Shown one piece after another: positions 10,501-43,413 of a stretch of 64,000 bases of DNA. The DNA lies in contig NZ_DASQBZ010000022.1 in NCBI RefSeq assembly GCF_035634955.1, forward strand, positions 100,730 through 164,729, written 5' to 3'. The notes under the pieces are model-generated. The model was not told the origin of the DNA. It did not search any database and saw nothing but the letters and a program-made list of their open reading frames with translations. Position 1 is the stretch's first letter. Each line of letters opens with the position of its first letter. The position numbers and the translations under genes were made by a program. This DNA comes from Variovorax sp. (GTDB taxonomy: Bacteria > Pseudomonadota > Gammaproteobacteria > Burkholderiales > Burkholderiaceae_C).

Positions 10501-10538
10501 GGGGATGAGGGGCGCGCCGCACGTCCCCGGAATCCGGT

Positions 10539-20564: not shown

Positions 20565-21281
20565 ATGAAGCGTGAACAATCGCCCGCGCGCGTCGAGGCG
20601 CATCCGTTGCCCGGCTGGTGGGGCAAGCTGCCGGGCATGGGCGACTTCGCCCACCGGCGGCTGCCGGACGAGTTTCGCCACGCCTGGGACCATTGGCTGC
20701 AGGCCGGGCTGCTGCAACTGCGCGCGCGCCACGCCGACTGGACCGGGCGCTACCTGTCGGCGCCGCTGTGGTGCTTCATGCTGGGCGACGGCGTGATCGG
20801 CGCCGGCGCCTGGATGGGCGTGCTGATGCCCTCGGTGGACGCCGTCGGCCGCTACTTCCCGTTCACGGTGGCCGACGCCATGGGGCCGGGCCCGGCCAGG
20901 CTGCATGGGCCAATGCTGGCGCACGCCCGCCACTGGCTGGAGCGGGCCGCGCAATGCGCCATCGACGGACTGGAGCAGGACCTGGACGCGCTGCGTTTCG
21001 ACGCGCTGGTGCTGCAGCGCTTCGGCGACGGTGCGGGCACAGGCGCGGCCCCGGGCGAACCGCCATTGCCGGGCGACGCGGCCGATGGCGAGGGCGGCGA
21101 CGATGGCGCGCAGGACGCGGGCGAGCCGATCGGGCTGGCCCTGCCCGAGTTCGGCCAGTCGCTGTGGTTCACCGATCCGGCGGCGCGCGGCGGCCAGGGC
21201 ATGAGCACCCTGGGACTGCCGCAGGACGAGCAATTCGACGCGCTGTTCGGCTTTCCGGCCGGCGACGTGGCGGACCAATAG
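20565..21281 (+). CDS. tagF: T6SS-associated TagF
   Basis: 'GWWGKLPGMGDF', 'PSVDAVGRYFP'. Confidence 0.9.
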   Translation: MKREQSPARVEAHPLPGWWGKLPGMGDFAHRRLPDEFRHAWDHWLQAGLLQLRARHADWTGRYLSAPLWCFMLGDGVIGAGAWMGVLMPSVDAVGRYFPFTVADAMGPGPARLHGPMLAHARHWLERAAQCAIDGLEQDLDALRFDALVLQRFGDGAGTGAAPGEPPLPGDAADGEGGDDGAQDAGEPIGLALPEFGQSLWFTDPAARGGQGMSTLGLPQDEQFDALFGFPAGDVADQ

Positions 21282-21292
21282 CGGAACCGGTC

Positions 21293-23176
21293 ATGCACGA
21301 CGGCCCATTCCCGCACGACGAAACGGACGCGACGCGCATCGCCGGCGCGCCGGCCCCGGCGCAGGACGGTGCCGGCCTGCTGCCCGTCGGCAGCCGCCTG
21401 GCCGAATTCGAGCTGACCCGCGTGGTCGGGCAGGGCGGCTTCGGCGTGGTCTACGAGGCGTGGGACACCGACCTCGAGCGCGTGGTCGCGATCAAGGAGT
21501 ACCTGCCGGTGTCGCTGTCCACCCGCCAGGGCGACGGCACGGTGATGCCGCTGTCCGAGCGCACGCGCGAGACGTTCGACCTGGGCATGCGCAGCTTCAT
21601 CAACGAGGCGCGGCTGCTGGCGCAGTTCGACCACCCCTCGCTGCTGAAGGTGCTGCGCTTCTGGCAGGAAAGGGGCACCGCCTACATGGCGATGCCGTTC
21701 TACCGCGGCCAGACCCTGCGCCAGGCGCTGGGCGGGCAGCGCGACGGCGGCGCGGGTGAAGCCTGGCTCATGGACATCCTGGACGGTGTGACGCAGGCGC
21801 TGGCCGTCATGCACGCGGCCAACTGCTATCACCGCGACATCGCGCCGGACAACATCATCCTGCTGGAAGATTCGGGCCGTCCTGTGCTGCTCGACTTCGG
21901 CGCGGCGCGTCGCGTCATCAGCGACAAGACGCAGGCCATCACGGTCATCCTCAAGCCGGGCTACGCGCCGGTCGAGCAATACGCCGAGATGCCCGACATG
22001 GCGCAGGGCGCCTGGACCGACGTCTATGCGCTGGCGGCGGTGATGCACGTGGCCGTGACCGGCCGGCCGCCGCCGCCTTCGGTGGCGCGCATGCTCAACG
22101 ACAGCTACCTGCCGCTGGCCGCCGACGAAGGACTGCGCACGCGCTACAGCGCGCGCCTGCTGTCGGCGATCGATGCGGGACTGGGCGTGCGTCCGCAGGC
22201 GCGCCCGCAGTCCATGGCCGAGCTGCGCGGCCTGCTGGGGCTGGAACCCGGCGACGTGCCGCGCCGCGTGCCGGCGGGCGACGGCGACGACGACCGGACG
22301 GTGATCCTGCCCCGCGCAACGCCGGGCGGCGGCCCCGCGGCTGCCCGCGCGCCGGCGGGGCGCGGGCGCACCGCGGCCGCGCTGGCCGTGCTCGCGCTGC
22401 TGGGCATCGGCGGCGCGTGGTGGTGGATGCAGCAACGCGGCGACGGCGTGCCGACGGCGAACGGCCCGGCGCCTGTCGCGGCAACGCCCGGCGTCGGCGC
22501 GCCAGCGCCGTCGATGCCGGACGCCGCGCCTGCCGGGCCTTCGCCAACCCCTGCGCCAAGCGCGGCGCTGGCGCCGGTGCCCGCGCCGCCCCCGGTCGCG
22601 CAAGCCGCGCCGCCCGCCGCACCGGCGCCGGAAGCAGCGCCGCCGCCGCCGGTCGCGCCGCGCGCGGTGACGCCGCTCGAATCGCTGCAGTCGCTCGCGC
22701 GCGGTGCCACTGCCGGCTTCGACGTGACGGCGCGGCCGGCCAAGGCGGAGGTGAACATCGGCAAGGACGCGCTGGGGTTCGACCTGCGCAGCAACCGGGC
22801 GGGCTTCGTCTACGTGTTCCTGCTGTCCTCGGGCAACGAGTTGTTCCTGCTGTTCCCGAACCTGCTGGACAAGTACAACAGGATCACGCCGAACACCACG
22901 CTCACGCTGCCGCGCGCATCCTGGCCCATGAATTCGGGCGGGCCGCCCGGCAGCAACGAGTTCGCCGTGCTGGTGAGCGAGCACGAGCGCGATTTCTCCG
23001 GCACCGGCGTCATCACCGACGGTGTCTTTCCGCAGTTTCCGTTGCCCGCCCTGGCGGCGCTGGAGGCCGTGCGCGGCACCGGCCCCGCGCCGCTGCTCGG
23101 GCGGGCGGTGTGCGCGCCCGGCACCCCCTGCCGGGATGCCTATGGCGTTGGTCGATTCAAGATCGTCGAGAAGTAA
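21293..23176 (+). CDS. ppkA: Membrane Ser/Thr kinase (PpkA-like) with Pro/Ala linker and C-terminal DUF4384-like domain
   Basis: 'GQGGFGVVY', 'VAIKEY', 'HRDIAPDNI', 'DFG', 'GYAPVEQY'. TM 'AAALAVLALLGIGGAWWW'. C-terminal 'GFVYVFLLSSGNELFLLFPN..N'. Confidence 0.85.
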   Translation: MHDGPFPHDETDATRIAGAPAPAQDGAGLLPVGSRLAEFELTRVVGQGGFGVVYEAWDTDLERVVAIKEYLPVSLSTRQGDGTVMPLSERTRETFDLGMRSFINEARLLAQFDHPSLLKVLRFWQERGTAYMAMPFYRGQTLRQALGGQRDGGAGEAWLMDILDGVTQALAVMHAANCYHRDIAPDNIILLEDSGRPVLLDFGAARRVISDKTQAITVILKPGYAPVEQYAEMPDMAQGAWTDVYALAAVMHVAVTGRPPPPSVARMLNDSYLPLAADEGLRTRYSARLLSAIDAGLGVRPQARPQSMAELRGLLGLEPGDVPRRVPAGDGDDDRTVILPRATPGGGPAAARAPAGRGRTAAALAVLALLGIGGAWWWMQQRGDGVPTANGPAPVAATPGVGAPAPSMPDAAPAGPSPTPAPSAALAPVPAPPPVAQAAPPAAPAPEAAPPPPVAPRAVTPLESLQSLARGATAGFDVTARPAKAEVNIGKDALGFDLRSNRAGFVYVFLLSSGNELFLLFPNLLDKYNRITPNTTLTLPRASWPMNSGGPPGSNEFAVLVSEHERDFSGTGVITDGVFPQFPLPALAALEAVRGTGPAPLLGRAVCAPGTPCRDAYGVGRFKIVEK

Positions 23177-23239: not shown

Positions 23240-24898
23240 ATGAACAGCCTTTCGCCACCGCCGCCGGCCGCCGCTTCCGCCGTCCGGAAGGCGGCGCTGG
23301 CCGTGCTGCTCGCCGGCCTGGCCGGGTGCGCCGGCATGCCGCCATCCGGCGCGCCAGCCGCCCCGGACGCCGCCGCCACGCCCGCCGCGGCGCCGGCCCC
23401 GGCGACCCCACCGCCGCCGGCCCCGATCAGCCTCGACGACCGCGCGCCCGCGCGCCCGGCTGCGGGCGCCTCGGCCGGCCCGGGCGCCAGCGTGGCCGGA
23501 CAGTCGCGCACCTTCTCGACCAGCGTGGCCACCTACACCTCGGTCGGCTACGACAAGCTGCCCGGCTGGGTGCAGGACGATTTCTCCCAGACCTGGCCGG
23601 CCTTCCTGACCAGCTGCCAGGTGCTCGACCGGCGCGGCGAGGCGTGGCGCAGCATCTGCGGGCGCGCACGCGCGGTCGACAGCCGCAACGACGCGGCCAT
23701 CCGCAACTTCTTCGAATCCGAGTTCTCCGCCTACCAGATCCGCGACGACGACCGCCGCACCGACGGCGTGGTCACCGGCTACTTCGAACCCGAACTCGCG
23801 GGCAGCCGCAACTACGCGCCGCCGTTCATCTACCCGGTGTACGGCCAGCCGCAGGACATGCTGTTCCTGGACGCGCGCAAGATTCCCGCCGGCGCCAGCA
23901 GCGTGCCGGCCCGGCTGCAGGGCAACCAGGTGATCCCGCAGGCCGGCCTGTCGACGCGCGACCTGGGCGCCCCCGGCATCTACGTGCTGGAGCTGTCGGA
24001 CGTGACCCGCGACACGCTCGATCGCAAGGTCCGGCTGCGCGCCGAGGGCCGGCGCCTGCTGCCCTACTACACGCGCCAGGAGATCGAGGCGCGCGGCGCG
24101 CCCAACGCCAGGGTGCTGGCCTTCGTGGACAACGCGATGGCGCTGTACGAGATGCAGATCCAGGGCTCGGGCCGCATCCGCCTCAAGGACGGCGAGGTGA
24201 TCCGCGTCTCGTACGCCGAGCAGAACGGGCAGCCCTTCCGGCCCACGCTGGCGAAGAACGCCAAGGGCAAGAGCAAGACCGCGGTGCGCACCCGCGGCGG
24301 TGCGGTCGAGCTGGTGCTGGACGACGATGACGACGATCTCCAGGCCGGCGACACCGACACCGGCAGCGTGCGCGTGCGCGGCTTCACGCTGGCCCGCCCG
24401 GCCGTGATGGGCGCGGTGGCGGTGCCGGGCCAGCGCACCACGGCCGCGGCCACCGGCAGCGGCATCCAGGACCCGAGCTACGTCTTCTTCAAGGAAGGCC
24501 AGTCCGGAGCCGGCGGTCCGGTCGGGGCGTTCGGCGTGCCGCTGGAGCCGGGGCGCTCGATCGCGGTGGACCCGCGCGCCACGCCGCTGGGCTACCCGGT
24601 GTACATCTCCACCCGCGAGCCGGTGGGCAACAAGCCCATGCAGCGCCTGACGGTGGCGCAGGACACCGGCGGCGCCATCCGCGGCGCGGTGCGGGCCGAC
24701 TATTTCTTCGGCAACGGCACCGAGGCCGCCGCGCAGGCGCGGCGCATGAAGGAGCGCGGCCAGTTGTGGATCCTGCTGCCGCGCGGACTGCCGGTGGCGG
24801 CGGCCGCGTCCGGCGGCATCCGCACCCGGGGCGGCGCGGCCGGCGCAAGCCTGCCGCAATGCCTGGTCGAGGAGGAGGACCTGTGCGTCGACGACTGA
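23240..24898 (+). CDS. mltA: MltA-family lytic transglycosylase lipoprotein with insertions
   Basis: Lipobox 'LAGLAGC', 'VTGYFEP', 'IQGSGRI', 'DPSYVFF', 'SIAVDP..PLG', catalytic 'AQDTGGAIRG..RADYFFG'. Confidence 0.9.
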   Translation: MNSLSPPPPAAASAVRKAALAVLLAGLAGCAGMPPSGAPAAPDAAATPAAAPAPATPPPPAPISLDDRAPARPAAGASAGPGASVAGQSRTFSTSVATYTSVGYDKLPGWVQDDFSQTWPAFLTSCQVLDRRGEAWRSICGRARAVDSRNDAAIRNFFESEFSAYQIRDDDRRTDGVVTGYFEPELAGSRNYAPPFIYPVYGQPQDMLFLDARKIPAGASSVPARLQGNQVIPQAGLSTRDLGAPGIYVLELSDVTRDTLDRKVRLRAEGRRLLPYYTRQEIEARGAPNARVLAFVDNAMALYEMQIQGSGRIRLKDGEVIRVSYAEQNGQPFRPTLAKNAKGKSKTAVRTRGGAVELVLDDDDDDLQAGDTDTGSVRVRGFTLARPAVMGAVAVPGQRTTAAATGSGIQDPSYVFFKEGQSGAGGPVGAFGVPLEPGRSIAVDPRATPLGYPVYISTREPVGNKPMQRLTVAQDTGGAIRGAVRADYFFGNGTEAAAQARRMKERGQLWILLPRGLPVAAAASGGIRTRGGAAGASLPQCLVEEEDLCVDD

Positions 24899-24923: not shown

Positions 24924-25712
24924 ATGCAAGACACCCTGTCCCTCGACGAGAGCGGCGAACTGGTCCGCCTCTGGCGGCGCCGGCAGCAGCTGTCGCCCCA
25001 AGAGATGGGGCGCATGTACCGCATCGTGGGCGAGGCGCTACGCACCTGCAACCCGCCCGAGCTCAAGGTGCTGGGCGAGGGGCGGCAGGAGCTGGTGGCC
25101 CAGTTCATCTACGTGAAGGTGCTGCGGCTGGACGCCGATGCCCAGGACGTGGGCGCCGAGCCGGGCGAGGCCGACGGCGACGGCGGGGCCGGCGAGGGCG
25201 CGGGCAGCGCGCCATCCAGTGCCTACGCCCTGTGCGCCTACTTCCGCCGCTACCTGATCGACTGCACCCGCGCCAGCAGCTTCCGGCGGCGGCTGTCGAT
25301 CGGCGACCAGGTCAGCGAGGCGCAGCTCGAGACGCAGCTGGGCAGCCAGCCTGGCCCGGCGGACGACAGTCTGGCCGAACACGGCCTGTCGGACGAGGCG
25401 GTGCAGCAGGCGGCGCGCCGATTCATCGCCGGCCTGGGCGAGCCCGAGCGGCTGCTGCTGTGCGAAGGCTTCGGCCGGGAGATGCCCGGCGGGCTGTCGG
25501 GCGTGGCGGCGCGCCATGCGATCGCGTCCTACCACTACCGCGCCGGACGGCTGGGCCTGGTGCACCGGCGCGAGGCGCTGCCGGCCGACTATGCCCGCAC
25601 CGAACTCGGGGGCTGGATCCAGGGCACGCTGGGCATCGCCATCGAGCCGGACAACATGCCCGCGATCCTGCGGGTCTTCAAAATCCTGGGGGCTGAGGCG
25701 TCTTGCGTGTAG
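24924..25712 (+). CDS. Divergent ECF-like sigma factor
   Basis: Region-2-like 'ELVAQFIYVKVL' and 'AYFRRYLIDCTR'. Region-4-like 'FIAGLGEPERLLL...LSGVAARHAIASYHYRAGRLG'. Followed by a single-TM partner gene. Confidence 0.5.
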   Translation: MQDTLSLDESGELVRLWRRRQQLSPQEMGRMYRIVGEALRTCNPPELKVLGEGRQELVAQFIYVKVLRLDADAQDVGAEPGEADGDGGAGEGAGSAPSSAYALCAYFRRYLIDCTRASSFRRRLSIGDQVSEAQLETQLGSQPGPADDSLAEHGLSDEAVQQAARRFIAGLGEPERLLLCEGFGREMPGGLSGVAARHAIASYHYRAGRLGLVHRREALPADYARTELGGWIQGTLGIAIEPDNMPAILRVFKILGAEASCV

Positions 25713-25736: not shown

Positions 25737-26921
25737 ATGCCCATCGAACTATGGCCTCCGCTTCACCTCATCCGCAGTCAGCTGGAACCGGCCTCGCCGG
25801 TGCCGGGCGGCGAGCCGGTGCGGATGGCCGGCGTCGATGCGGACGGCGCGGCGGCGCGCGCGGCCATGCCGGCCGACCTGCTGCTGCCGCTGACCGAGCT
25901 GGCGCGCCGGCGCGAGGCGCTGGCCGCGCGGGCGTTCGGCGCGCGCTGGACGCCGGGGCGCCTTGTCGGCGTGCTGCTGGATGGCCGCCTGCTGGGCGTG
26001 CTGCTCGACCGCCAGGCGCCCGGCGGCGCGTGGCACGGCTTCATGGCCGCCGGCGAGGCCGACTGGGCCGGTCCGCACGACGTGCTGCTCGAGCCTGCCG
26101 ATGAACCCTTCGAGCCGCTGTTCGGAATGATCCAGGCCTGGAACCCGGTCACCCTGATGCCCGCGCCGCAATGGCTGGCGCGGGTGCAGGGCGAGGTTTC
26201 GGCCACGCGGCTGGCCGCCGTCCGCGCGGTGCACGACGAGCATGCGGCCGGCCACGTGCCGGACATCGCGTGCGAGCCCGGGCGCATCGCCCTGCGCACG
26301 ACCGGCGGGGGCGCGTTCAGCGTGCTCAGCGGCACCCCGCTCGCCCCGGACGACGAGCGCGGCGCCTACCAGCGGCTCTACCGCGACGCGGCCGCGCGCC
26401 TGGTCGCCGCCAGCCGCCGCCTGGCCGGTGCGGACGGCACCGGCGCCGCGCCGGCCCGACATGCCGGCCCGGCCGGTGGCGCGGCGGCCGGGGCCGTCGA
26501 CCGGACGGCGGATGCGGCGCCGGCCGCGGCGCCACCGCGCGCGGCGGACGACGGGCCCTGGCAACGCCTGCGGCGCTGGCTGGGCGCCGACGGCTGGGTC
26601 CGGCCCGCGTTCGCGCTGCTGGCGCTGGTGGTGGTCGTGCAGAACCTCGTGCTGCCCGGCGGCGCAGGCGACGCGGACGACGCGCTGCGCTTTCGCGGCC
26701 TGCCCGGAGCGGCGACCGACGCGCCCACCGCCGACCTGGCGCTCAGCTTCCGACCGGACGTGCGCATGGCCGACGCGCAGCGCCTGCTGCAATCGGTGCA
26801 GGCCGAGGTGGTGGCCGGGCCGGATGCGCGCGGGACCTGGTACCTGCGCGTGCCCGACGTGACCGCCAGCCGCGCCGCGCTGGCCGCCTCGCCGCTGGTC
26901 GGCGCGGTCGGGCCGCCCTGA
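25737..26921 (+). CDS. Single-pass membrane protein, putative anti-sigma factor
   Basis: RBS AGGA upstream. Cytoplasmic N-domain, A/P/G linker, TM 'PAFALLALVVVVQNLVL', 'LRFRG', and a C-terminal module 'LSFRPD..AQRLLQSVQAEVVAGPDARGTWYLRV' like that of protease-associated anti-sigma proteins. Confidence 0.55.
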   Translation: MPIELWPPLHLIRSQLEPASPVPGGEPVRMAGVDADGAAARAAMPADLLLPLTELARRREALAARAFGARWTPGRLVGVLLDGRLLGVLLDRQAPGGAWHGFMAAGEADWAGPHDVLLEPADEPFEPLFGMIQAWNPVTLMPAPQWLARVQGEVSATRLAAVRAVHDEHAAGHVPDIACEPGRIALRTTGGGAFSVLSGTPLAPDDERGAYQRLYRDAAARLVAASRRLAGADGTGAAPARHAGPAGGAAAGAVDRTADAAPAAAPPRAADDGPWQRLRRWLGADGWVRPAFALLALVVVVQNLVLPGGAGDADDALRFRGLPGAATDAPTADLALSFRPDVRMADAQRLLQSVQAEVVAGPDARGTWYLRVPDVTASRAALAASPLVGAVGPP

Positions 26922-26942
26922 CGCGCCGGAAGGGATTCGCCC

Positions 26943-28979
26943 ATGCACGCGCTGCTGCCACCGCCCCGCTGGATGCAGGCCCTGCTGCTGGGTGCGGCAC
27001 TGTTGCTGGCCGGCGGCCAGATACAGGCGGCACATGCGGCGCGGCGCGCGCTGCTGGTGGGCGTGTCGGAACTGGCCCACCAGAGCCCTTCGCTGTGGCT
27101 GCAGGCGCCGCGCAACGACGTGCTCCTGATGCGCGACGCGCTGCAGCGCCAGGGATTCGCGCCGGGCGAGATCGCCGTGCTGGCCGACGGCATCGACGGC
27201 GCCGCGCTGCCGGATTCGCGCGGCATCCACGACGCCCTGGCCGACCTGCTCGCCCGCTCGGGCAGCGGCGACTTCGTGCTGCTGTACTTCTCCGGCCACG
27301 GCACGCGCGTGCGCGACCGCGCCAAGGCGTACGCCGAGCCCGACGGCCTGGCCGAGAACTTCCTGGCGCGTGACGCGCTGCTGCCTCCCGGCGGGGGCGA
27401 CATGCCGCTGGCCGGCGGCCTGCGCGACGTCGACGTCGACGGCTGGATCCGCGCCTTCCTGGCGCGCGGCGTGTTCGTCTGGTCGGTGTTCGACACCTGC
27501 GCGGCCACCTCCATGACGCGCGGCGTGCGCGCCCTGCCGTCCGGCCCGGCAGACGCCGACATCGACGACGTCGACGACCCGGTGCGGTTTCGCGGCATCC
27601 GCCTCGACCAGCTGGCGCAGGCGCCGGCCGGCACGCCGCTGCCGGCCGACCTGGCGCCGCCGCCCTGGCCGCCGGTGCCGCGGGCGCGCTACGTCGCCTT
27701 CTTCGCGTCGGAAAGCCACCAGGTGACGCCCGAACTGCGCCTGCCGCGCGGCGATCGCAGCGCGCGACCGCAGGGACTGCTGACCTGGGCCGTCGCGCAG
27801 GCGATGGCGCGGCGGCCGGCCACCTTCCGCGAACTCTTCAACCAGGTGGTCTCGCTGCAGGCCCCGGTGATCGGCGAGCTGGCGCCGCGCTTTCCCACGC
27901 GCGAACTGCCGTCGCCGGTGGCCGAGGGCAACCTGGACCTGCCGCTGTACGGCGCCGCGCCGGCGCCGCTGACCACGCGGCCGGCCTGGCCGGCGCGGCG
28001 CGCGGGCGGCCAGCTGCTGCTGGCGGCGGGGTTGCTCGATGGCCTGGAGCCCGGCCAGCCGGTGCGGGTGCTGGCCACGCTGGAAGGCGGCGCGCAGCGC
28101 AGCGCCACGCTTGCGTTGACGGAGGTCGACCTCGGCACCGCGCAACTGCCGGTGCCGACCGCGCTGGCCGCGCTCGGCGACGACGCGCTGTGGAGCGTGG
28201 TGCCGTCGGCCGATTCGCCGTCCGCCCAGTTGCGGGTGGGTGGCGGCGTGGCGCTGCCGGCAGCGATCAGCCTGGCCTGGCCGGCCGCGCTCCGCGCCGC
28301 GAGCGCCGGCGAAGCGGCCGACGTGACGCTCGTGCGCACGGCCGACGGCGTGCAGGCCCGCATCGTCTCGCCCGACCTGGCCGCGCTGATCAACGAGCAG
28401 GCCGTGCCGCTGGCGGACCAGGACGCGTTGCGCACCTACCTGCAGGCGCTGGCAGAACTCAAGTGGCTCGGCCGCCTGCAGCGGCTCGCGCGGGGCCGGC
28501 AGCTCGACGGCTTCGATGCCACCGTCGAGGTCTGGTCCGGCAGCCGGCTGCTGCGCAGCGAGCCGGCCGAGGCCGGCAGCGGCGCGCCACTCGAAGCCGG
28601 CGAACGGCTGAGCCTGTCGGTGCGCAACGCCAGCGGCCAGTCGCTGGATCTGGTGGTGGTCGGCATCGATGCCGATGGCGCCATCCGGCAGGTGTATCCG
28701 CCGGCCATGAGCGAGACGAATCGCTTCGAGCGCGGCAGCCGCGAGCGGCCGGCCATGCAGCGCTTCGAGCTGCCGTGGCTGGACCCGGCGCGCGGCGGCC
28801 GCCTGCTGGTGGTGGCCGCGCCGGCCGCGCCTTTTTCCGCGCCGCGCCTGTTCGGCGCGGCCGCGCCGGATGCGACGCCGCCCGCCGGCATGCGGCTGCG
28901 CGGCACACGGCCGGCGGCGCCCGACGCGCGGCGCCAGCTGTACGGCGCGCTGGCCGCATGGCCCGCGGGCGCGCGATGA
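26943..28979 (+). CDS. Exported caspase-like peptidase (family C14, ortho/metacaspase type) with C-terminal DUF4384-like domain
   Basis: Signal peptide. 'ALLVGV..RNDV', catalytic His in 'YFSGHG' (27297-27299), catalytic Cys in 'FDTC' (27498-27500). C-terminal 'AGERLSLSVRN..DLVVVGIDADGAIRQVYP'. Confidence 0.88.
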   Translation: MHALLPPPRWMQALLLGAALLLAGGQIQAAHAARRALLVGVSELAHQSPSLWLQAPRNDVLLMRDALQRQGFAPGEIAVLADGIDGAALPDSRGIHDALADLLARSGSGDFVLLYFSGHGTRVRDRAKAYAEPDGLAENFLARDALLPPGGGDMPLAGGLRDVDVDGWIRAFLARGVFVWSVFDTCAATSMTRGVRALPSGPADADIDDVDDPVRFRGIRLDQLAQAPAGTPLPADLAPPPWPPVPRARYVAFFASESHQVTPELRLPRGDRSARPQGLLTWAVAQAMARRPATFRELFNQVVSLQAPVIGELAPRFPTRELPSPVAEGNLDLPLYGAAPAPLTTRPAWPARRAGGQLLLAAGLLDGLEPGQPVRVLATLEGGAQRSATLALTEVDLGTAQLPVPTALAALGDDALWSVVPSADSPSAQLRVGGGVALPAAISLAWPAALRAASAGEAADVTLVRTADGVQARIVSPDLAALINEQAVPLADQDALRTYLQALAELKWLGRLQRLARGRQLDGFDATVEVWSGSRLLRSEPAEAGSGAPLEAGERLSLSVRNASGQSLDLVVVGIDADGAIRQVYPPAMSETNRFERGSRERPAMQRFELPWLDPARGGRLLVVAAPAAPFSAPRLFGAAAPDATPPAGMRLRGTRPAAPDARRQLYGALAAWPAGAR

Positions 28980-29004
28980 ACGATCCCCACGCACGGAGCA
29001 CGCC

Positions 29005-29562
29005 ATGAACCTGAACGCGGATGCACAACTGGATGCGGGCGAGGTGCAACGCCTGCTCGACCACATGTCGCAGGAGACCGGCAACGACTACCTGATGCTG
29101 ATCGAGAGCAAGGGCAGCGCGGTCGAAGGCGAATCCAGCCGCGCCTTCGAGGACGGCAAGCGGCGCATGCAGATCGGCGGCTACAGCTACGTGGCCGCGG
29201 TGCAGACCCCGCCGGGCACCGCCAAGGGCCAGGTGCGCATGAGCGCCGTCATGGTCGTGCGCGAATGCGATGCGGCCACGGCCACCATCGCCAGTCTGCT
29301 GAAGAACCAGGAGAGCGACCTGAAGGTGCAGATCTCCGTGTTCAAGGCCAGCGGCGACAGCTCCAGCGACCAGCAGCCGATGCTGGAGTTCGTGCTGGAG
29401 AACGCGCGCATCACCACGCAGGCGATTCTCACCGGCGGCAATCCGCGCCGGCCTTGCGAGATCATCTGCCTGACGCCGCGCAAGCTGGAGATCCGCTCGG
29501 CGCCGCAGCAGCAGACGGGCCTGCGCGGTGCGGTGCGCACCTGCACGTTGACCCAGCCCTAG
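29005..29562 (+). CDS. Divergent Hcp-like protein with N-terminal extension
   Basis: 'YLMLIESKGSAVEGES', 'VMVVRECDAATATI', 'VFKASG..QPMLEFVLENARIT', 'EIICLTPRKLEIRSAPQ' follow the Hcp pattern. RBS GGAG upstream. Confidence 0.7.
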   Translation: MNLNADAQLDAGEVQRLLDHMSQETGNDYLMLIESKGSAVEGESSRAFEDGKRRMQIGGYSYVAAVQTPPGTAKGQVRMSAVMVVRECDAATATIASLLKNQESDLKVQISVFKASGDSSSDQQPMLEFVLENARITTQAILTGGNPRRPCEIICLTPRKLEIRSAPQQQTGLRGAVRTCTLTQP

Positions 29563-29729: not shown

Positions 29730-30560
29730 ATGACCCGCTCCGCAGAGATGCTCCAGGCGGCCGACCCGGCCGGTGCGCTCCAGGCCCTGACCGACGAGAT
29801 CCGCGCCAGGCCGGCCGACGCGAAGCTGCGCGTGTTCATGGCGCAACTGCTGTGCGTACTCGGCCAGTGGGAGCGCGCAATCAACCAGCTGACCGTGGCC
29901 GCCGAGATGGACGCGCTGGCGGTGCCGATGAAGCAGGTCTACGGCGACGCGATCCGCTGCGAGAGCCTGCGCGCCGATGTCTTTGCCGGCCGGCGCACGC
30001 CGATGATCTTCGGCGAGCCGGACCCGTGGCTCGCCCTGCTCATCGAATCGCTGCTGCGCCTCGGCGCGGGCGAGCCCGACATGGCCGAGGACCTGCGCGT
30101 GCGTGCCTTCGATGCCGCGCCGGCGAGTCCCGGCACCATCGACGGCGAGGCTTTCCAATGGCTGGCCGATGCCGACATGCGCCTGGGCCCGGTGCTGGAG
30201 GCGTTCGTCAACGGACGCTACTACTGGGTGCCGTTCGCGCGCCTGGCGCAGGTGCGGCTGGAGCCGCCGGAGGATCTGCGCGACATGGTGTGGCTGCCGG
30301 CGCACCTGGTCTTCGAGAACGGCGGCGAGACGCTGGCGCTGATCCCGTCGCGCTACGAAGGCAGCGAGCATGCCGCCGACGGCGCGGTGCAGCTGGCGCG
30401 CAAGACCGAGTGGCGCGCGCTGCGCCCCGATGTCTGGGCCGGCCTGGGCCAGCGCATGTGGAGCAGCGACATCGGCGACGAAGGCAGCGAGCACCCGATG
30501 CTGCAGGTGCGCGCGATCGACTTCGCGCCGCAGGCCGGGGCGGGGCAGGCGGATGCCTGA
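29730..30560 (+). CDS. tagJ: T6SS accessory TagJ (ImpE)
   Basis: 'QLLCVLGQWERAINQL', 'WLADADMRLGPVLE', 'YYWVPF', 'LIPSRY', 'GLGQR'. Confidence 0.93.
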   Translation: MTRSAEMLQAADPAGALQALTDEIRARPADAKLRVFMAQLLCVLGQWERAINQLTVAAEMDALAVPMKQVYGDAIRCESLRADVFAGRRTPMIFGEPDPWLALLIESLLRLGAGEPDMAEDLRVRAFDAAPASPGTIDGEAFQWLADADMRLGPVLEAFVNGRYYWVPFARLAQVRLEPPEDLRDMVWLPAHLVFENGGETLALIPSRYEGSEHAADGAVQLARKTEWRALRPDVWAGLGQRMWSSDIGDEGSEHPMLQVRAIDFAPQAGAGQADA

Positions 30561-31059
30561 GCTGACCGCGCAGGAGCGGCTGCAGCCGTCGCTGCTCGAT
30601 CGTCTGGTGGACCATGCGCCGGGCGAGACGCGCGAAGGCGACGAGCAGCGCGTGCTGACCCGCCAGGCGCTGCGCGAGGCGGTGCTGCGCGACCTCAGCT
30701 GGTTGTTCAACGCCACCGAGATGGGACCGCGCGTCATCGACGAGCGGCGACATCCGCACGCGGCGCGCTCGGTGCTGAACTACGGATTGCCTATGCTGTC
30801 CGGCCAGTTCACCTCGTCGGTGCAGCGTGCCAGCATGGAACAGGCACTCAGGAACGCGATCACGCAGTTCGAGCCGCGCATCCTGCCCCGCACCCTCGAA
30901 GTGGAACTTCTCATGGAAGGCTCGGCCCTCGAATCGCACAACCGCATCGGGCTGGTCATCCGCGGCATGCTGTGGGCGCAGCCGGTGCCGCTGGAGTTCC
31001 TCATGCGCAGCCGCATCGACCTCGAGGAAGGGCGCATCGAGATCGAGGACGGCCGCTGA
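30553..31059 (+). CDS. tssE: T6SS baseplate TssE
   Basis: 'ERLQPSLLDRL', 'VLRDLSWLFN', 'SVLNYGLP', 'FEPRI'. Confidence 0.95.
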   Translation: MPELTAQERLQPSLLDRLVDHAPGETREGDEQRVLTRQALREAVLRDLSWLFNATEMGPRVIDERRHPHAARSVLNYGLPMLSGQFTSSVQRASMEQALRNAITQFEPRILPRTLEVELLMEGSALESHNRIGLVIRGMLWAQPVPLEFLMRSRIDLEEGRIEIEDGR

Positions 31060-31087
31060 CCGGTTCGCCGGCGCCGCAGGAACGACC

Positions 31088-32986
31088 ATGGATCCCAGGC
31101 TGCTGAACCTCTACGAACAGGAGCTTCGCTACTTCCGCGAAAGCGGCGCGGAGTTCGCGCAGGCGTTCCCGAAGATCGCGCATCGACTCGGCATGGAAGG
31201 CCAGGAGGTCGCCGACCCGTACGTGGAGCGGCTGATCGAGGCGACCGCATTCCTCTCGGCCCGGGTCGGCCTGAAGCTGGACGCCGAATACCCGCGCTTC
31301 ACCGGGCACCTGCTGGACATCGTCTATCCGAACTTCCTGGCGCCCACGCCCGCCATGATGGTCGCCGGCCTGGAGCCCGACACCGAGGACGCCAGCCTGG
31401 CCACCGGCCCGACCGTGCCACGCGGCAGCGGCCTGCGCGCGCGCCATGCGGCCGGGCTGCACACCTACTGCGAGTTCCGCACCAGCCATGCGGTGCGGCT
31501 GTGGCCGGTGCAGGTGCGCCGGGCCCAGTACTTCAGCTACGCGCCCGACCTGCCGCTGGCCCAGCACCCCGCGGGCCGGGACATCCGCGGCGGCCTGCGC
31601 ATCGCGTTGCATGCCGGTGGCGGGCTGCAGTTCCGGCAGCTGCCGATCGACGAGCTGGTGTTCCATCTCGCGGGCGCCGACGACGTGGCCTGGCAACTGC
31701 ACGCCTGCCTGCTGGGCAAGCCGCTCGGCGTGATGGTTCAGCCGCTGTCGGCCGCCGGGCAGGCGACCGGGCAGGCCGGCGCGATCCGCCACCTGCCGGC
31801 GCAATGCGTGGCGCCGGTGGGCTTCGAGGACGACGAGGCACTCCTGCCGGTGACGGCCACGGGCTTCTCGGGGCATCGCCTGGTGCAGGAGTACTTCGCC
31901 TTCGCCCAGCGCTTCCAGTTCGTGCGCATCACCGGCCTGGCCGAGGCGCTGGCGCAGGTGGCCGGCAGCGACGTGGAACTGGTCGTGCTCTTCTCGCGCG
32001 GCGATGCCGCGCTGGAAAAGCTGGTGAGCGCGGACAACCTGCGCCTGCACTGCGTGCCGGCGATCAACTTGTTCTCCAGGCGGCTGGACCGCGTGGTGGT
32101 CAACGAAGGGGCCAGCCAGTTCCACCTGCTGGCCGATCGCACCCGTCCGCAGGACTTCGAGGTGCACAGCGTGCAGTCGGTGGTGGGCCACGGCAGCCCC
32201 GGCAATGGCGACGTGGCCGAGACCACCTTCCTGCCCTTCTATGCCGCCTTCCACGGCGCGCGGCCGGGGCATCCGGCCTACTTCACCACCACGCGCGAGC
32301 CGCGCGTGCATTCGCAGCGCCAGCGCAGCGAGGGCCACCGCAGCAGCCACATCGGCTCCGAGCTGTACATGCAGATCGTGGACGCGCAGCAGGCGCCGTA
32401 CGCCGCCTCGCTGCGCCAGCTGGCGGTGACCGCGCTGGTCACCAACCGCGATCTGCCGCTGCTGATGCCGCTGGGTCAGGGCAACGACTTCGAATGCATG
32501 GACTCGCAGCCGGTGCAGCGCGTGCGCGTGCTGCGCGGCCCGTCGCGCCCGGTGTCGCCGGTGGTCAGCCAGGGACTGGGCTGGCGCGTGCTCGACCACC
32601 TGGCGCTGAACTACCTTTCGCTGGCCGACAGCACCGCGCAGGAAGGCGCGGCCGCGCTGCGAGAGATGCTGATGCTCTACGCGGCGCACGGCGACGAGGC
32701 GCGCCAGTCGCAGGTGCGCGGCCTGTTGTCGGTCAAGTCGCGCCCGGTGGTGCGGCGCCTGCCGCTGCCGGGTCCGATCGCCTTCGGCCGAGGGCTCGAG
32801 GTGGCGCTGGAAGTGGACGCGGCCGCCTTTCGCGGCCACAGCGCGTTCCTGTTCGGGGCGGTGCTGGCGCGCTTCCTGGCGCGGCATGTCGAGGTGAACC
32901 ATTTCGTCGAGACCGCGCTGGTGCTGGCCGGCCGCGGCGAGGTCATGCGCTGGAGGCCGCTGTGCGGAACCCGACCGATCCTGTAG
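31088..32986 (+). CDS. tssF: T6SS baseplate TssF
   Basis: 'MDPRLLNLYEQELRYFRE..EFA..FPKIA', 'DPYVERLIEATAFL', 'LHCVPAINLF'. Confidence 0.96.
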   Translation: MDPRLLNLYEQELRYFRESGAEFAQAFPKIAHRLGMEGQEVADPYVERLIEATAFLSARVGLKLDAEYPRFTGHLLDIVYPNFLAPTPAMMVAGLEPDTEDASLATGPTVPRGSGLRARHAAGLHTYCEFRTSHAVRLWPVQVRRAQYFSYAPDLPLAQHPAGRDIRGGLRIALHAGGGLQFRQLPIDELVFHLAGADDVAWQLHACLLGKPLGVMVQPLSAAGQATGQAGAIRHLPAQCVAPVGFEDDEALLPVTATGFSGHRLVQEYFAFAQRFQFVRITGLAEALAQVAGSDVELVVLFSRGDAALEKLVSADNLRLHCVPAINLFSRRLDRVVVNEGASQFHLLADRTRPQDFEVHSVQSVVGHGSPGNGDVAETTFLPFYAAFHGARPGHPAYFTTTREPRVHSQRQRSEGHRSSHIGSELYMQIVDAQQAPYAASLRQLAVTALVTNRDLPLLMPLGQGNDFECMDSQPVQRVRVLRGPSRPVSPVVSQGLGWRVLDHLALNYLSLADSTAQEGAAALREMLMLYAAHGDEARQSQVRGLLSVKSRPVVRRLPLPGPIAFGRGLEVALEVDAAAFRGHSAFLFGAVLARFLARHVEVNHFVETALVLAGRGEVMRWRPLCGTRPIL

Positions 32987-34110
32987 CGCCAGCGGCCGTG
33001 CACGACGGCGGCGCGCCGGCGCCGGGCACGCCGCGCGAGCGGGTCGCAGCCTGGCTGCAGGCGCGATGCGCAGCGCCTTGGGCGTACGACTACTTCGCCG
33101 TCATGCGCCGCCTCGAGGCGGTGGCCGCGCCGGCGCCGCGCTGGGGCCACGCGCTGCTGCCCGGTGCCGAGCCGGTGCGCGTCGGGCAGGAGGCCTCGCT
33201 GTCGTTCGCGCCGTCCAGCCTGAGCGGCTTCGAGCCCGGCGCCACGCCTGCGCCGCGCCTGCGCCAGGCCTTCTTCGGCTACATGGGCCCGAACGGGCCG
33301 CTGCCGCTGCACCTGAGCGACTTCATCCGCGAGCGCACCCGCAACCACGGCGACCCCACCTGGCTCGCCTTCCTGGACGGATTCGCGCACCGGTTCTCGC
33401 TGTACTTCTACCGGGCCTGGGCCCAGGCCCGGCCGGCGGTGGGCATGGACCGGCCGCAGGAGGACGGCTTCCGGCGCCGGCTGGGCGCGCTGGTGGGCGT
33501 GGGCACCGCGGCGCGCTGCGGGCGCGACGAAGTGCCCGACGACGCGCGCCTGTACTTCTCCGGCTGGCTCGGACGCCAGGTGCACAGCACCGAGGCGGTG
33601 GAGCGCGTGCTGACCCGCTACTTCGACGTGCCGGTGCGGCTCGAACCCTGGGTCGGCCACTGGATGGCACTGCCGGCGTCCGACCTGACGCGGCTCGGCC
33701 GCGGCGGCGCCGCCGGTGCGCTCGGCGCCGGCGCCATGCTCGGAAGCCGGGCCTGGGACCGGCAGCATCGCGTGCGGTTGCACGTGGGGCCGCTGTCGCT
33801 GGCCGAGTACCGGCGCTTCCTGCCCACCGGTGCCGCCCGGCCGCAGCTGCAGCGCTGGATGCAGCAGCTGCTGGCCGACGAGCTGTTCTGGGACGCGCAA
33901 CTGGTGCTGCACAAGGCGCAGGTGCCCGACACCCGCCTGGGGCGGCACCGCGGCAATGCGCCGCGCCTGGGCTGGGTGTCCTGGCTCGGCGCGGGGCCGC
34001 GCCGGCGCGACGCGGCCGACGTGCGCATCGACGGGGACGCGCGCTACGCGGCGGCAGCCGCCTGCGCGCCGCCAGTTTCCGCCGCGCCCGACACAGGAGA
34101 CACGCCATGA
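32962..34110 (+). CDS. tssG: T6SS baseplate TssG
   Basis: GTG start at 32962 after GGAGG. 'FFGYMGPNGPLPLHL', 'FLDGFAHR', 'LGWVSWLG'. Confidence 0.93.
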   Translation: MRNPTDPVAPAAVHDGGAPAPGTPRERVAAWLQARCAAPWAYDYFAVMRRLEAVAAPAPRWGHALLPGAEPVRVGQEASLSFAPSSLSGFEPGATPAPRLRQAFFGYMGPNGPLPLHLSDFIRERTRNHGDPTWLAFLDGFAHRFSLYFYRAWAQARPAVGMDRPQEDGFRRRLGALVGVGTAARCGRDEVPDDARLYFSGWLGRQVHSTEAVERVLTRYFDVPVRLEPWVGHWMALPASDLTRLGRGGAAGALGAGAMLGSRAWDRQHRVRLHVGPLSLAEYRRFLPTGAARPQLQRWMQQLLADELFWDAQLVLHKAQVPDTRLGRHRGNAPRLGWVSWLGAGPRRRDAADVRIDGDARYAAAAACAPPVSAAPDTGDTP

Positions 34111-36848
34111 GCGAGATCAGCCGCACGGCCCTTTTCGGCAAGCTCAATCCACTGGCCTACAAGGCCATCGAGGGCGCAACCGTGTTCTGCAAGATGCGCG
34201 GCAATCCGTACGTCGAGCTGGAGCACTGGTTCGCGCAACTGCTGCAGCTTCCCGATTCCGACCTGAACCGCGTCATCGCGCACTACGGGCTCGACGTGTC
34301 GGTGCTGGCGCGCGACCTGACCGCCGCGCTGGACAGGCTGCCGCGCGGGGCCACCGCCATCAGCGACTTCTCGCCGCACATCGAGAACGCCGTCGAGCGC
34401 GGCTGGACCTATGCCACCTTGCAGTTCGGCGAAGCGCAGGTGCGCACCGGCTACCTGCTGGTGGGCATGCTCAGGACGCCCAGCCTGCGCAACCCGCTGC
34501 TGGCCATCTCCAGGCAGTTCGAGAAGGTCAAGGCCGAGGACCTGGCCGACCACTTCGCCAAGATCTGCGATGCCTCGCCCGAGTCGAGGATGCGGGCGCA
34601 GGACGGCACCGGCATGGGCTCGGGCGCGCCTGGAGAAGACGCCGGCGCGATGGCCCCGGCCGCCATGGGCAAGGGCGATGCGCTTAGAAAATTTGCTGTC
34701 GACCTCACGGAGAAGGCGAGGAAGGGAGAGATGGATCCGGTGACCGGGCGGGACGAGGAAATCCGCCAGATCGTCGACATCCTGATGCGGCGCCGCCAGA
34801 ACAACCCGCTGCTGACGGGCGAGGCGGGCGTCGGCAAGACGGCGGTGGTGGAAGGCTTCGCGCAGCGGCTCGCCCGCGGCGATGTGCCGCCGCAGCTCAA
34901 GGGCGTGAAGCTGCTCACGCTCGACATCGGCCTGCTGCAGGCCGGCGCCAGCATGAAGGGGGAGTTCGAGCAGCGGCTGCGCCAGGTCATCGACGAGGTA
35001 CAGGCCTCGGCGCAGCCCATCATTCTTTTCATCGACGAGATCCACACGCTGGTGGGCGCGGGCGGCGCCGCCGGCACCGGCGACGCGGCCAACCTGCTCA
35101 AGCCCGCACTGGCGCGCGGCAACCTGCGCACCGTCGGCGCCACCACCTGGGCCGAATACAAGAAGTACATCGAGAAGGACCCTGCGCTGACGCGTCGGTT
35201 CCAGGTGGTGCAGGTGCCCGAGCCGGACGAGCGCAAGGCCATCGGCATGTTGCGCGGCGTCGCCGGCATGCTCGAGAAGCACCACCGCGTGCAGCTGCTG
35301 GACGAGGCGATCGAGGCGGCGGTGAAGCTGAGCCATCGCTACATTCCGGCGCGGCAACTGCCGGACAAGGCGGTGAGCCTGCTCGACACCGCCTGCGCCC
35401 GGGTGGCCGTGAGCCAGCATGCCATGCCGCCGGAGGTGGAAGACTGCCAGCGCCGCATCGAGGCGCTGACGGTCGAGCGCGAGATCATCGGGCGCGAAGG
35501 CGCCATCGGCATCGACGTGGCCGCGCGTTCCGGCGAGGTCGAGGCGGCGCTGGCCCAGGCGCGCGCCGAGCTGGAAAGGCTCGACGCGCGGTGGAAGGAA
35601 GAAAAGGAACTGGTCGACCGCCTGCTGGCCCTGCGCGCCAGGCTGCGCGACGGCAACAAGCCGGTGGACGCGCCGCAGCCCGAGCCCGCCGCTTCCGCCG
35701 AGGGCGGCGCCGCCGCGCCGGGCGATGCCGCGTCCGTGGCCGACGCGCCGGAGCCGGACCGTGCCGCGCTGCTGGACGAGCTGCACGCGCTGCAGCAGCG
35801 CATCGGTGCGGTGCAGGGCGAGTCGCCGCTGATCCTGCCGTCGGTCGACGCGCAGGCCGTGTCCTCGGTGGTAGCCGACTGGACCGGCATTCCGGTCGGG
35901 CGCATGCAGCGCAACGAGATCGACACCGTGCTGAACCTGCCGCGGCTGCTGGCGCAGCGCGTGATCGGCCAGGACCACGCGATGGAGATGATCGCCAGGC
36001 GCATCCAGACCTCGCGCGCCGGCCTGGACAACCCGGGCAAGCCGATCGGCGTGTTCATGCTCGCCGGCACTTCCGGCGTGGGCAAGACCGAGACCGCGAT
36101 CGCGCTGGCCGAGGCGCTGTACGGCGGCGAGCAGAACATGATCGTCATCAACATGAGCGAGTACCAGGAGGCGCACACGGTCTCCTCGCTCAAGGGTGCG
36201 CCGCCGGGCTACGTCGGCTACGGCGAAGGCGGCGTGCTGACCGAGGCGGTGCGCCGCCGTCCGTACAGCGTGGTGCTGCTCGACGAGGTGGAGAAGGCCC
36301 ATCCGGACGTGCACGAGCTGTTCTTCCAGGTGTTCGACAAGGGCTTCATGGAAGACGGCGAGGGCCGCAGCATCGACTTCAAGAACACGCTGATCCTGCT
36401 GACCACCAATGCCGGCACCGACCTGATCGCCAGCATGTGCAGGGACCCGGAGCTGATGCCCGAGCCCGAGGGCATGGCCAAGGCGCTGCGCGAGCCGCTG
36501 TTGAAGATATTTCCGCCAGCGCTGCTGGGCCGGCTGGTGACCATTCCCTACTACCCGCTGTCGGACGACATGCTCGGCCGGATCGTGGTGCTGCAGCTCG
36601 AGCGCATCAGGAAGCGCGTGCAGGCGCGCTACCAGATCCCCCTCGACTACGGGGACGACGTCGTCAAGCTGGTGGTCAGCCGCTGCACCGAGAGCGAATC
36701 GGGCGGCCGCATGATCGACGCGATCCTGACCAACACGATGCTGCCGGACATCAGCCGCGAGTTCCTGGGCCGGATGATGGCCGGCACACCGATCGGCGGC
36801 GTGCGGGTGTCGGCCGAGAACGGCGCCTTCGCCTACCACTTCGCCTGA
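34107..36848 (+). CDS. tssH: T6SS AAA+ ATPase ClpV (TssH)
   Basis: 'MSEISRTALFGKLN', Walker A 'GEAGVGKT' and 'GTSGVGKT', Walker B 'FIDEIH' and 'LLDEVEKAH'. Confidence 0.97.
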   Translation: MSEISRTALFGKLNPLAYKAIEGATVFCKMRGNPYVELEHWFAQLLQLPDSDLNRVIAHYGLDVSVLARDLTAALDRLPRGATAISDFSPHIENAVERGWTYATLQFGEAQVRTGYLLVGMLRTPSLRNPLLAISRQFEKVKAEDLADHFAKICDASPESRMRAQDGTGMGSGAPGEDAGAMAPAAMGKGDALRKFAVDLTEKARKGEMDPVTGRDEEIRQIVDILMRRRQNNPLLTGEAGVGKTAVVEGFAQRLARGDVPPQLKGVKLLTLDIGLLQAGASMKGEFEQRLRQVIDEVQASAQPIILFIDEIHTLVGAGGAAGTGDAANLLKPALARGNLRTVGATTWAEYKKYIEKDPALTRRFQVVQVPEPDERKAIGMLRGVAGMLEKHHRVQLLDEAIEAAVKLSHRYIPARQLPDKAVSLLDTACARVAVSQHAMPPEVEDCQRRIEALTVEREIIGREGAIGIDVAARSGEVEAALAQARAELERLDARWKEEKELVDRLLALRARLRDGNKPVDAPQPEPAASAEGGAAAPGDAASVADAPEPDRAALLDELHALQQRIGAVQGESPLILPSVDAQAVSSVVADWTGIPVGRMQRNEIDTVLNLPRLLAQRVIGQDHAMEMIARRIQTSRAGLDNPGKPIGVFMLAGTSGVGKTETAIALAEALYGGEQNMIVINMSEYQEAHTVSSLKGAPPGYVGYGEGGVLTEAVRRRPYSVVLLDEVEKAHPDVHELFFQVFDKGFMEDGEGRSIDFKNTLILLTTNAGTDLIASMCRDPELMPEPEGMAKALREPLLKIFPPALLGRLVTIPYYPLSDDMLGRIVVLQLERIRKRVQARYQIPLDYGDDVVKLVVSRCTESESGGRMIDAILTNTMLPDISREFLGRMMAGTPIGGVRVSAENGAFAYHFA

Positions 36849-40694: not shown

Positions 40695-40710
40695 AGCGAA
40701 AGGGCGAGCG

Positions 40711-41193: not shown

Positions 41194-41223
41194 GCAGGCC
41201 GCCGGCGCAGGACCCGCATCGAC

Positions 41224-43412: not shown

Positions 43413-43413
43413 G

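Follow-up and report, generated by a model that had tools for sequence, protein, structure and literature searches.

A stretch of 64,000 nucleotides from Variovorax sp. (NCBI RefSeq assembly GCF_035634955.1, contig NZ_DASQBZ010000022.1, positions 100,730 to 164,729 of the forward strand), hereafter the window, carries a type VI secretion system (T6SS) cluster with a gene for a caspase-like protein. By conserved co-localization (57 of 57 loci in Comamonadaceae and one more distant contig), this protein is classed as a T6SS accessory (Tag) component. It also shares a heptapeptide with unk2, the membrane protein encoded just 5' of it. We propose, at a probability somewhat short of even, that the caspase is a Sec-exported, Arg-specific metacaspase-like protease, which would cleave itself, cut unk2 after VRFR, and signal across the membrane to the T6SS.

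The caspase gene and its product

The reading frame at 26943-28979 is a real gene of 678 codons. A ribosome-binding site of the AAGGGA type lies 8-14 nt 5' of the ATG. The GC contents at codon positions 1, 2 and 3 are 0.80, 0.57 and 0.93, which is coding-like in a window of about 72% GC. Full-length homologs with 56-88% identity are present in many Variovorax genomes under the NCBI name 'caspase family protein', and the gene as such is therefore already known. The features of the gene, with amino acid (aa) positions of the product, are as follows (AF2, AlphaFold2; pLDDT, its predicted local distance difference test score).

26943-28979, + strand: caspase-like gene (metacaspase/orthocaspase-like, family C14), 678 aa, ATG start
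26943-27038, + strand: predicted Sec signal peptide, aa 1-32 (inspection, AF2 helix at aa 9-28, family conservation)
27039-27932, + strand: caspase-fold catalytic domain, aa 33-330 (Pfam, profiles, AF2/Foldseek)
27297-27299, + strand: His119, in YFSGHG (alignment with the metacaspase His motif)
27498-27500, + strand: Cys186, in FDTCAATS (alignment with the metacaspase Cys motif)
27573-27596, + strand: linker motif DDPVRFRG, aa 211-218, with R217 as proposed P1, in the disordered p20-p10-like linker at aa 187-248
27987-28364, + strand: middle beta-rich domain, aa 349-474 (AF2 strands, pLDDT about 80-90)
28512-28823, + strand: C-terminal beta sandwich, DUF4384-like, aa 524-627 (AF2, sub-threshold Pfam)

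The high GC content of the window gave long spurious open reading frames (ORFs) on all strands. One of these, an antisense ORF of 1111 aa (25749-29084, - strand), covers the entire caspase gene. We interpreted it as a high-GC artefact, because its codon-position GC is the shadow of the + strand genes. Evidence of transcription was also sought. The matches of the source organism were DNA metagenomes only, from soil and mosquito samples. Runs matching a V. paradoxus locus, of unlabelled type, gave fragmentary low-depth contigs spanning the entire region.

The initial annotation, made from the sequence, had described a caspase-like protease with a Sec-type signal peptide, an atypical active-site context and a middle beta-rich domain. 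These four points were all borne out. The Pfam model Peptidase_C14 (PF00656) matched at E=4.3e-9 (36.8 bits against a cut-off of 21.4), over the first half of the domain only (aa 34-133). A profile search across 1.84 billion representative proteins defined a family of 520 clusters at E<=1e-30, many of which were about 700 aa long and matched along their full length. The family profile matched AtMC4, AtMC9, Yca1, TbMCA2 and Geobacter GSU0716. The E values were 1e-19 to 1e-14 for the metacaspases AtMC4, Yca1 and TbMCA2, and 1.7e-8 for GSU0716. The alignment with yeast Yca1 (E=3e-19) covered both catalytic motifs, that of the His and that of the Cys, as well as the acidic loop.

The AF2 model had a pLDDT of 67 overall and 80-90 in the core strands. 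Its top Foldseek matches were AtMC4, AtMC9, MALT1 and Yca1 (E from 1.7e-7 to 3e-5, probability 1.0). In the model, His119 and Cys186 were at strand ends in a caspase-like placement. Two segments were disordered (pLDDT <50), namely the acidic loop after the His (aa 120-159) and the linker after the Cys (aa 187-248). The mature N-terminus would lie 1-2 residues ahead of the first caspase strand, and the linker is about 60 aa long (the type II class, of which a missing prodomain and a long linker are marks, was defined for eukaryotes).

H119, C186, D59, S117 and D184 were invariant in 19 orthologs. In a 13-sequence alignment reaching down to 27% identity, H119, C186, D59 and D184 were still invariant, and S117 was replaced by Ala in some sequences (AGHG). 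The AtMC4 counterparts of H119, C186, S117 and D184 are His86, Cys139, Ser84 and Asp137, of which Ser84 and Asp137 are pocket residues that bind the basic P1 side chain (PMC7206013). The putative S1-pocket residues D184, S117 and N58-D59 are conserved in the window protein, as expected for an acidic pocket that accepts a basic P1 residue; on the p10 side, the mapping of pocket residues was of low confidence. By its fold, dyad and predicted pocket, the protein belongs to family C14 and is metacaspase-like.

The active-site context set the clade apart. SGHG was present in 120 of 120 orthologs, and DTC[SA]A.S in 115 of 120; the corresponding outgroup motif was D[STAN]CH[SA][GA]. The C[SA]A.S in place of CHSG distinguished this clade, to which the window protein belongs; hardly any outgroup sequence had it. 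The retained His and Cys favored an active enzyme over a pseudoprotease.

The predicted signal peptide has a positive n-region (R9), a 16-residue h-region at aa 10-25 (WMQALLLGAALLLAGG), and a cleavage site at A30-H31-A32, before A33. Small residues occupy positions -3 and -1, and there is neither a lipobox (no Cys) nor a twin-arginine motif of the form S/T-R-R-x-F-L-K, as expected from Sec export. The call was made by sequence inspection and a hydropathy heuristic. A comparable hydrophobic segment preceded the caspase domain in 116 of 119 orthologs and in 128 of 135 distant representatives. Distant family members combined signal peptides with the canonical FD[ST]CHSG. In a survey of 671 prokaryotic metacaspases, many had a single N-terminal helix that was probably a signal peptide (PMC3501461). 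Predicted export is the rule in this family of caspase homologs. The surprise that the initial annotation had attached to the signal peptide was overstated, as the survey and the 520-cluster family showed such exported homologs to be common.

Beyond the catalytic domain, AF2 placed a long helix (aa 493-516) between the middle beta domain and the C-terminal sandwich. The DUF4384 named in the initial annotation stood in part. The C-terminal beta sandwich was there with a weak match to DUF4384 (PF14326) at aa 551-616 (E=0.0047), and the score of 17.4 bits was below the gathering cut-off of 27. Distant relatives of the caspase gave no DUF4384 match. The domain is best termed DUF4384-like and is no confident member of DUF4384.

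A fixed position in one T6SS lineage

The genes around the caspase gene, in order along the window, are as follows.

15915-20528: TssM, full-length, 1537 aa (Pfam)
20565-21281, + strand: TagF (Pfam)
21293-23176, + strand: PpkA-like Ser/Thr kinase (domain scan)
23240-24898, + strand: MltA/3D-domain lytic-transglycosylase-like lipoprotein (Pfam)
24924-25712, + strand: unk1, cytoplasmic, all-helical, 262 aa, always beside unk2
25737-26921, + strand: unk2, bitopic membrane protein, 394 aa, proposed substrate
29006-29562, + strand: divergent Hcp-like paralog, directly 3' of the caspase gene (Pfam E=1.6e-6)
29730-30560, + strand: TagJ (ImpE) (Pfam)
30827-32986: TssF (Pfam)
33066-36848: ORF whose C-terminal two-thirds contain ClpV-type AAA domains (Pfam)
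38292-40694, + strand: VgrG

The gaps from the kinase gene through the MltA-like, unk1, unk2 and caspase genes to the Hcp-like gene are 21-64 nt, which is operon-like. The kinase has a cytoplasmic kinase domain, a transmembrane (TM) helix (22373-22429), a Pro/Ala linker and a periplasmic DUF4384 (22760-22984, E=1.9e-12). Its C-terminus also has a conserved tail, C-x5-C...FKIVEK. The initial annotation missed the neighbors that give the caspase its meaning, namely the PpkA-like kinase, the MltA-like lipoprotein, unk1 and the motif-bearing unk2.

A locus scan with one genome per species yielded 79 loci, 57 from Comamonadaceae and 22 with caspases at 27-39% identity. The order TssM-TagF-kinase-MltA-unk1-unk2-caspase-(Hcp)-TagJ-TssF-ClpV-VgrG was found in the 57 Comamonadaceae loci wherever the contig reached. 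These came from Variovorax, Xenophilus, Xylophilus, Pseudacidovorax, Polaromonas and Ottowia, together with unclassified or differently labeled assemblies, and their caspases were 46-72% identical. In most loci, the next gene after that of the caspase was the divergent Hcp-like one, as it was on L080, a distant contig.

No T6SS gene was present within 10 kb of any of the 22 distant relatives. Their neighborhoods instead contained genes for TPR-CHAT, trypsin or CHASE2 proteins and for a small secreted protein that was conserved. The latter is about 200 aa long, ends in YALMTN or YDILTN, and has no Pfam match (L062:7263-7931, L074:9328-9972 and L076:9331-9915, beside caspases of 27-30% identity). 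A substrate-like motif in this secreted neighbor was considered and rejected, as it was not conserved.

A metagenomic contig of 58% GC encodes a caspase with 37% identity and the motif DTCSAAS, and keeps the order unk1-unk2-caspase-Hcp-TagJ-TssE-TssF. The T6SS-linked clade is accordingly old, and unk1, unk2 and the caspase travel together. The numbers of clusters were similar for the three proteins (295 for the caspase, 340 for unk1 and 319 for unk2). The T6SS lineage with the caspase thus comprises Comamonadaceae and at least one more distant bacterium.

A heptapeptide shared with unk2

unk1 and unk2 had no Pfam, NCBIfam or PDB relatives and were named 'hypothetical' everywhere. Identity among orthologs was about 75% for unk1 and about 55% for unk2, and both were confined to this T6SS lineage. 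unk1 carries an invariant stretch, RHAIASYHYRAGRLGLVH. unk2 consists of about 287 aa of N-terminal cytoplasmic sequence, a TM helix at aa 288-306 (26598-26654), and about 85 periplasmic aa. The N-in/C-out orientation was assigned because basic residues precede the TM helix and acidic residues follow it. Its counterpart of the caspase linker motif is located just outside the membrane.

26676-26699, + strand: juxtamembrane motif DDALRFRG of unk2, aa 314-321, R320 invariant, periplasmic side

The consensus in the caspase linker was D-D-E-V-R-[F/W]-R-G, with R at P1 and V at P4 in 120 of 120 orthologs. That in unk2 was [D/E]-D-[E/D]-V-R-F-R-[A/S/N/G]-V-P, with R at P1 in 120 of 120 homologs, and it was always 8-15 residues beyond the TM helix. 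The most distant pair had Ile at P4 in both proteins (EDYIRYRG and QDDIRFRN). In the caspase, the motif is within a segment of pLDDT <50, which fits a cleavable linker.

Of the window's 37 predicted proteins (19,553 aa in all), only the caspase and unk2 contained the motif in its looser version, [DE][DE]x[VILM]R[FWYL]R, and shuffled unk2 sequences matched it at p of about 0.001. A strict version, [DE][DE][DEP]VR[FWY]R, was confined to these two sites across the six-frame translations of the window and 81 loci, 3.0 million residues in total. The counts of conservation and exclusivity argue more strongly for the motif than the p-values do.

A repeat at the DNA level was considered as the origin of the motif and rejected; the two 24-nt stretches are alike, and strong codon bias makes the likeness uninformative. 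The Phe codon of the motif is TTT in both genes of the window (27588-27590 in the caspase gene and 26691-26693 in unk2). TTT was used at this site in 17 of 20 caspase and 16 of 36 unk2 motifs with Phe (L001-L066). Elsewhere it was rare: TssM has 56 Phe codons and TssF has 33, and TTT is used once in each. A second similar element, [DN]LxVRWKxG, was found in unk2 orthologs about 20 residues past the first motif, at the start of the periplasmic domain. In the window it reads LSFRPD (26730-26760, aa about 332-342).

Proposed mechanism

The proposed mechanism treats the caspase as a dedicated accessory component of one T6SS lineage, with predicted catalytic competence. The protease would be exported to the periplasm, and its signal peptide would be cut after A32. 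Its own linker would then place the DDEVRFR heptapeptide in the acidic S1 pocket (D59, S117, D184) between His119 and Cys186, by analogy with AtMC4. In AtMC4, the linker covers the active site and puts Lys225 into the acidic pocket, flanked by His86 and Cys139; Lys225 is the first self-cleavage site, cut in response to Ca2+, and substrates are then cut after Arg (PMC7206013). In the manner of type II metacaspases, the window enzyme might likewise remain a zymogen up to its self-cleavage after R217.

The active enzyme would recognize the same heptapeptide on unk2, as the shared motif suggests, cut after R320, and shed the small periplasmic domain. The change in unk2 could pass to its large cytoplasmic domain and its partner unk1, and the signal could then join T6SS control alongside the PpkA-like kinase, Fha, PppA and TagF. 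These last two steps are speculative. The cluster holds the complete threonine-phosphorylation set (kinase, Fha, PppA and TagF), and with these genes co-encoded, the threonine-phosphorylation switch or cluster transcription would be the obvious output. The middle and C-terminal beta domains may position the enzyme on a partner, possibly the periplasmic DUF4384 of the kinase, for which the sequence evidence is weak. That the caspase acts as a 'periplasmic regulator', as proposed in the initial annotation, we likewise infer from sequence.

A wider claim may be made. The caspase could be a periplasmic site-1 protease of caspase fold in an undescribed trans-envelope module with unk2, unk1 and the DUF4384 kinase, which times the building or firing of the T6SS, with DDEVRFR shared by linker and substrate. 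We regard this version as doubtful.

If the proposal is true, the window protein would be a bacterial metacaspase homolog with a defined physiological substrate and a signaling role other than in death. Metacaspase homologs abound in bacteria, but to our knowledge hardly any has been given a substrate or a role in the cell. In the present case, the genomic context and the shared heptapeptide name a specific candidate substrate and scissile bond. The DUF4384 kinase, the MltA-like lipoprotein, unk1, unk2 and the protease form a conserved five-gene putative input module that spans the periplasm, and this suggests that proteolysis can feed the threonine-phosphorylation switch. Even if the motif were a docking site only, the caspase would be a new T6SS accessory component. 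In the literature, we found no paper that placed a caspase homolog in a T6SS cluster, the matches being concerned with host caspases, and none that named a periplasmic substrate for a caspase homolog. It appears that neither the constant association with the T6SS nor the five-gene module nor the shared heptapeptide has been described before.

Points against the cleavage model and other explanations

Several points weigh against cleavage of unk2 by an active caspase. This clade has lost the His that nearly all relatives keep after the catalytic Cys, and the Pfam model has no match to the Cys half of the caspase domain. The caspase activity may be altered or reduced. The motif pattern was defined after it had been sighted, which makes the chance estimates optimistic and the p-values soft. 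The motif common to both proteins may serve for docking or as a pseudosubstrate, and not for cleavage. A site-2 protease was not seen in the cluster. The specific homology between the C-terminus of the caspase and the kinase DUF4384 was marginal and was not adopted (E=0.067 by hhalign, with the core strands in register; E=0.28 by BLASTP).

An output through an extracytoplasmic function (ECF) sigma/anti-sigma pair formed by unk1 and unk2 likewise found no support. The idea came from the topology of unk2, sigma-like patches seen by eye in unk1, and a UniRef name, 'Sigma-70 family' (P0357). No sigma family was found among 20 unk1 homologs scanned at E<=1. The AF2 model of unk1 (pLDDT 62, low-confidence) gave nothing at E<1 in Foldseek, with sigma factors only at E of about 7-8. 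Alignment with E. coli RpoE by hhalign gave E=0.11 over an irrelevant segment.

The caspase might instead be a TagR-like co-activator, a periplasmic protein that binds the kinase DUF4384 and promotes kinase activation and Fha phosphorylation, with proteolysis secondary or directed at the kinase. The kinase, with its TM helix and periplasmic DUF4384, is encoded three genes upstream and always co-occurs, and the weakly DUF4384-like C-terminus of the caspase is perhaps the binding part. The domain of P. aeruginosa TagR is an FGE-sulfatase. DUF4384 and FGE-sulfatase recur on prokaryotic caspase homologs, and Proteo1-family kinases carry one or the other (bioRxiv 10.1101/2025.01.12.632604). However, the two sequences that would have to be related are barely similar by BLASTP and hhalign, and the motif is absent from the kinase. 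This explanation, which accounts neither for the strict conservation of the dyad nor for the motif shared with unk2, is unlikely.

Less likely still is a role in envelope remodeling or assembly, in which the protease would help the MltA-like transglycosylase to open the cell wall so that the T6SS membrane complex can be accommodated, perhaps through activation of the transglycosylase or processing of one of the subunits of the complex. The peptidoglycan-cleaving enzymes MltE of enteroaggregative E. coli and TagX of Acinetobacter are needed for T6SS assembly, and the MltA/3D-domain lipoprotein is within the same conserved block as the caspase. This reading leaves unk1 and unk2 without a role, and among the cluster proteins only the caspase and unk2 carry the motif, which the MltA-like protein lacks.

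The loss of the CHSG context in the clade and of Pfam coverage over the Cys half would also fit a pseudoprotease, the caspase fold serving as a scaffold that would hold, uncut, the DDEVRFR of unk2 and that of the caspase linker. There are known bacterial orthocaspases that lack catalytic activity (PMC6426788). Known pseudo-orthocaspases replace exactly the His and the Cys, the two residues that are kept here, as His119 and Cys186, in essentially all orthologs down to 37% identity. We consider a scaffold improbable.

A T6SS effector, or an immunity protein against an effector that acts in the periplasm, is suggested only by the location of the gene inside a T6SS cluster beside an Hcp-like gene, and by the signal peptides that immunity proteins against such toxins carry. 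It is very improbable: an effector would lack a signal peptide, be linked to VgrG, PAAR, Hcp or an adaptor, have an immunity gene and vary among strains, and the caspase does not fit this description. It has a signal peptide, is too large at 678 aa for the Hcp lumen, and holds its position at 46-88% identity over six named genera, in contrast to variable effector-immunity pairs. VgrG, PAAR and DUF2169 are unlinked, 9-15 kb downstream with their own nuclease toxin. The initial annotation had judged an effector less likely than a periplasmic regulator, and the fixed position in 57 loci among structural and regulatory genes, with no VgrG, PAAR or adaptor adjacent, agreed with that judgment.

Other genes of the window

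The remaining T6SS genes of the window are as follows.

14126-15589: TssK
41224-42360, + strand: DUF2169
43414-44547, + strand: PAAR-like protein with a Tox-GHH2 HNH-type nuclease domain
46951-48549, + strand: T6SS Fha (FHA domain and T6SS_FHA_C), start approximate
48580-49350, + strand: PppA-like PP2C phosphatase
53769-61048, - strand: TssA, TssB, TssC, canonical Hcp and DotU (TssL)

The canonical Hcp gene (53769-54260, - strand, E=5e-43) adjoins those of TssB and TssC. At 58204-61048 (- strand), a 391-aa protein with only the N-terminal domain of IcmF is encoded beside DotU (TssL), which is 574 aa long and has an N-terminal extension of 137 aa. The effector module at 38292-44547 (+ strand) also holds a small DUF6484/DUF2345-like ORF (40711-41193) and an unassigned ORF at 42361-43065. 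Between the ClpV-containing ORF and VgrG, a gene at 36867-38246 (+ strand) encodes TPR repeats fused to a SAM-dependent methyltransferase domain. It had tblastn matches in many related loci, not always between ClpV and VgrG.

Two-partner secretion (TPS) genes occupy 22-6434 (+ strand), one ORF of which matches ShlB/FhaC-type transporters. This ORF overlaps a second one in another frame, which encodes an exoprotein of >1800 aa that has TPS and MBG domains. Two hybrid histidine kinases are encoded on the minus strand (7222-9525 and 10539-12446), with a periplasmic binding-protein-like gene (9330-10370) beside one of them. A gene for a phosphonate-binding-like protein (12477-13706, + strand) is just 5' of tssK. 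The genes at 7222-13706 may be further regulators of the cluster.

Comparison with known systems

The best sequence and fold matches to the window protein were the plant type II metacaspases AtMC4 and AtMC9 (C14B; PDB 6W8S, 8A53, 9N3D). Shared with them are the SGHG His motif, the D-x-C Cys motif, the acidic S1-pocket residues, the acidic loop E-x-DG-x-x-E-x-F/I-x-x-x-D after the His, and apparently the lack of an N-terminal prodomain. A long flexible linker with basic residues follows the Cys in both; that of AtMC4 is inhibitory and about 150 aa long, compared with about 60 aa in the window protein. Unlike AtMC4 and AtMC9, the window protein is bacterial, is predicted to be exported by a signal peptide, has C[SA]A instead of CHSG, and carries two extra C-terminal beta domains.

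The orthocaspases, such as Microcystis MaOC1 and Geobacter GSU0716 (PDB 3BIJ), are of the same family, with the His-Cys dyad and an expected specificity for Arg/Lys. Combinations with DUF4384 and probable signal-peptide helices are documented for prokaryotic metacaspase-like proteins. Unlike these, the clade described here has a constant place within T6SS clusters, and we found no paper that tied orthocaspases to a secretion system or named a candidate physiological substrate for them.

The proposed cut resembles those made by DegS on RseA, and by Prc or CtpA on FecR-like anti-sigma factors, in that a single-pass N-in/C-out regulator holding a cytoplasmic partner would be cut in the periplasm. 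DegS, Prc and CtpA are serine proteases, whereas the window enzyme has the caspase fold. Unlike in these pathways, no resemblance of unk1 or unk2 to sigma or anti-sigma factors was detected, and no site-2 protease gene was seen nearby. The shared motif and the topology of unk2 are what point to a possible site-1 protease role.

The cluster as a whole resembles the H1-T6SS of P. aeruginosa with its TagQRST-PpkA-Fha1-PppA pathway and TagF brake. In both, a membrane-bound Ser/Thr kinase that has a domain in the periplasm is encoded together with Fha, a PP2C phosphatase and TagF, and periplasmic and lipoprotein accessory genes adjoin the kinase gene. The periplasmic domain of P. aeruginosa PpkA is a von Willebrand A domain; that of the window kinase is DUF4384. 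No FGE-sulfatase (TagR-type) domain was matched among the window proteins scanned. In the window, the five-gene module occupies the place that TagQRST has in Pseudomonas, with the MltA-like lipoprotein, unk1, unk2 and the protease standing where TagQRST would be.

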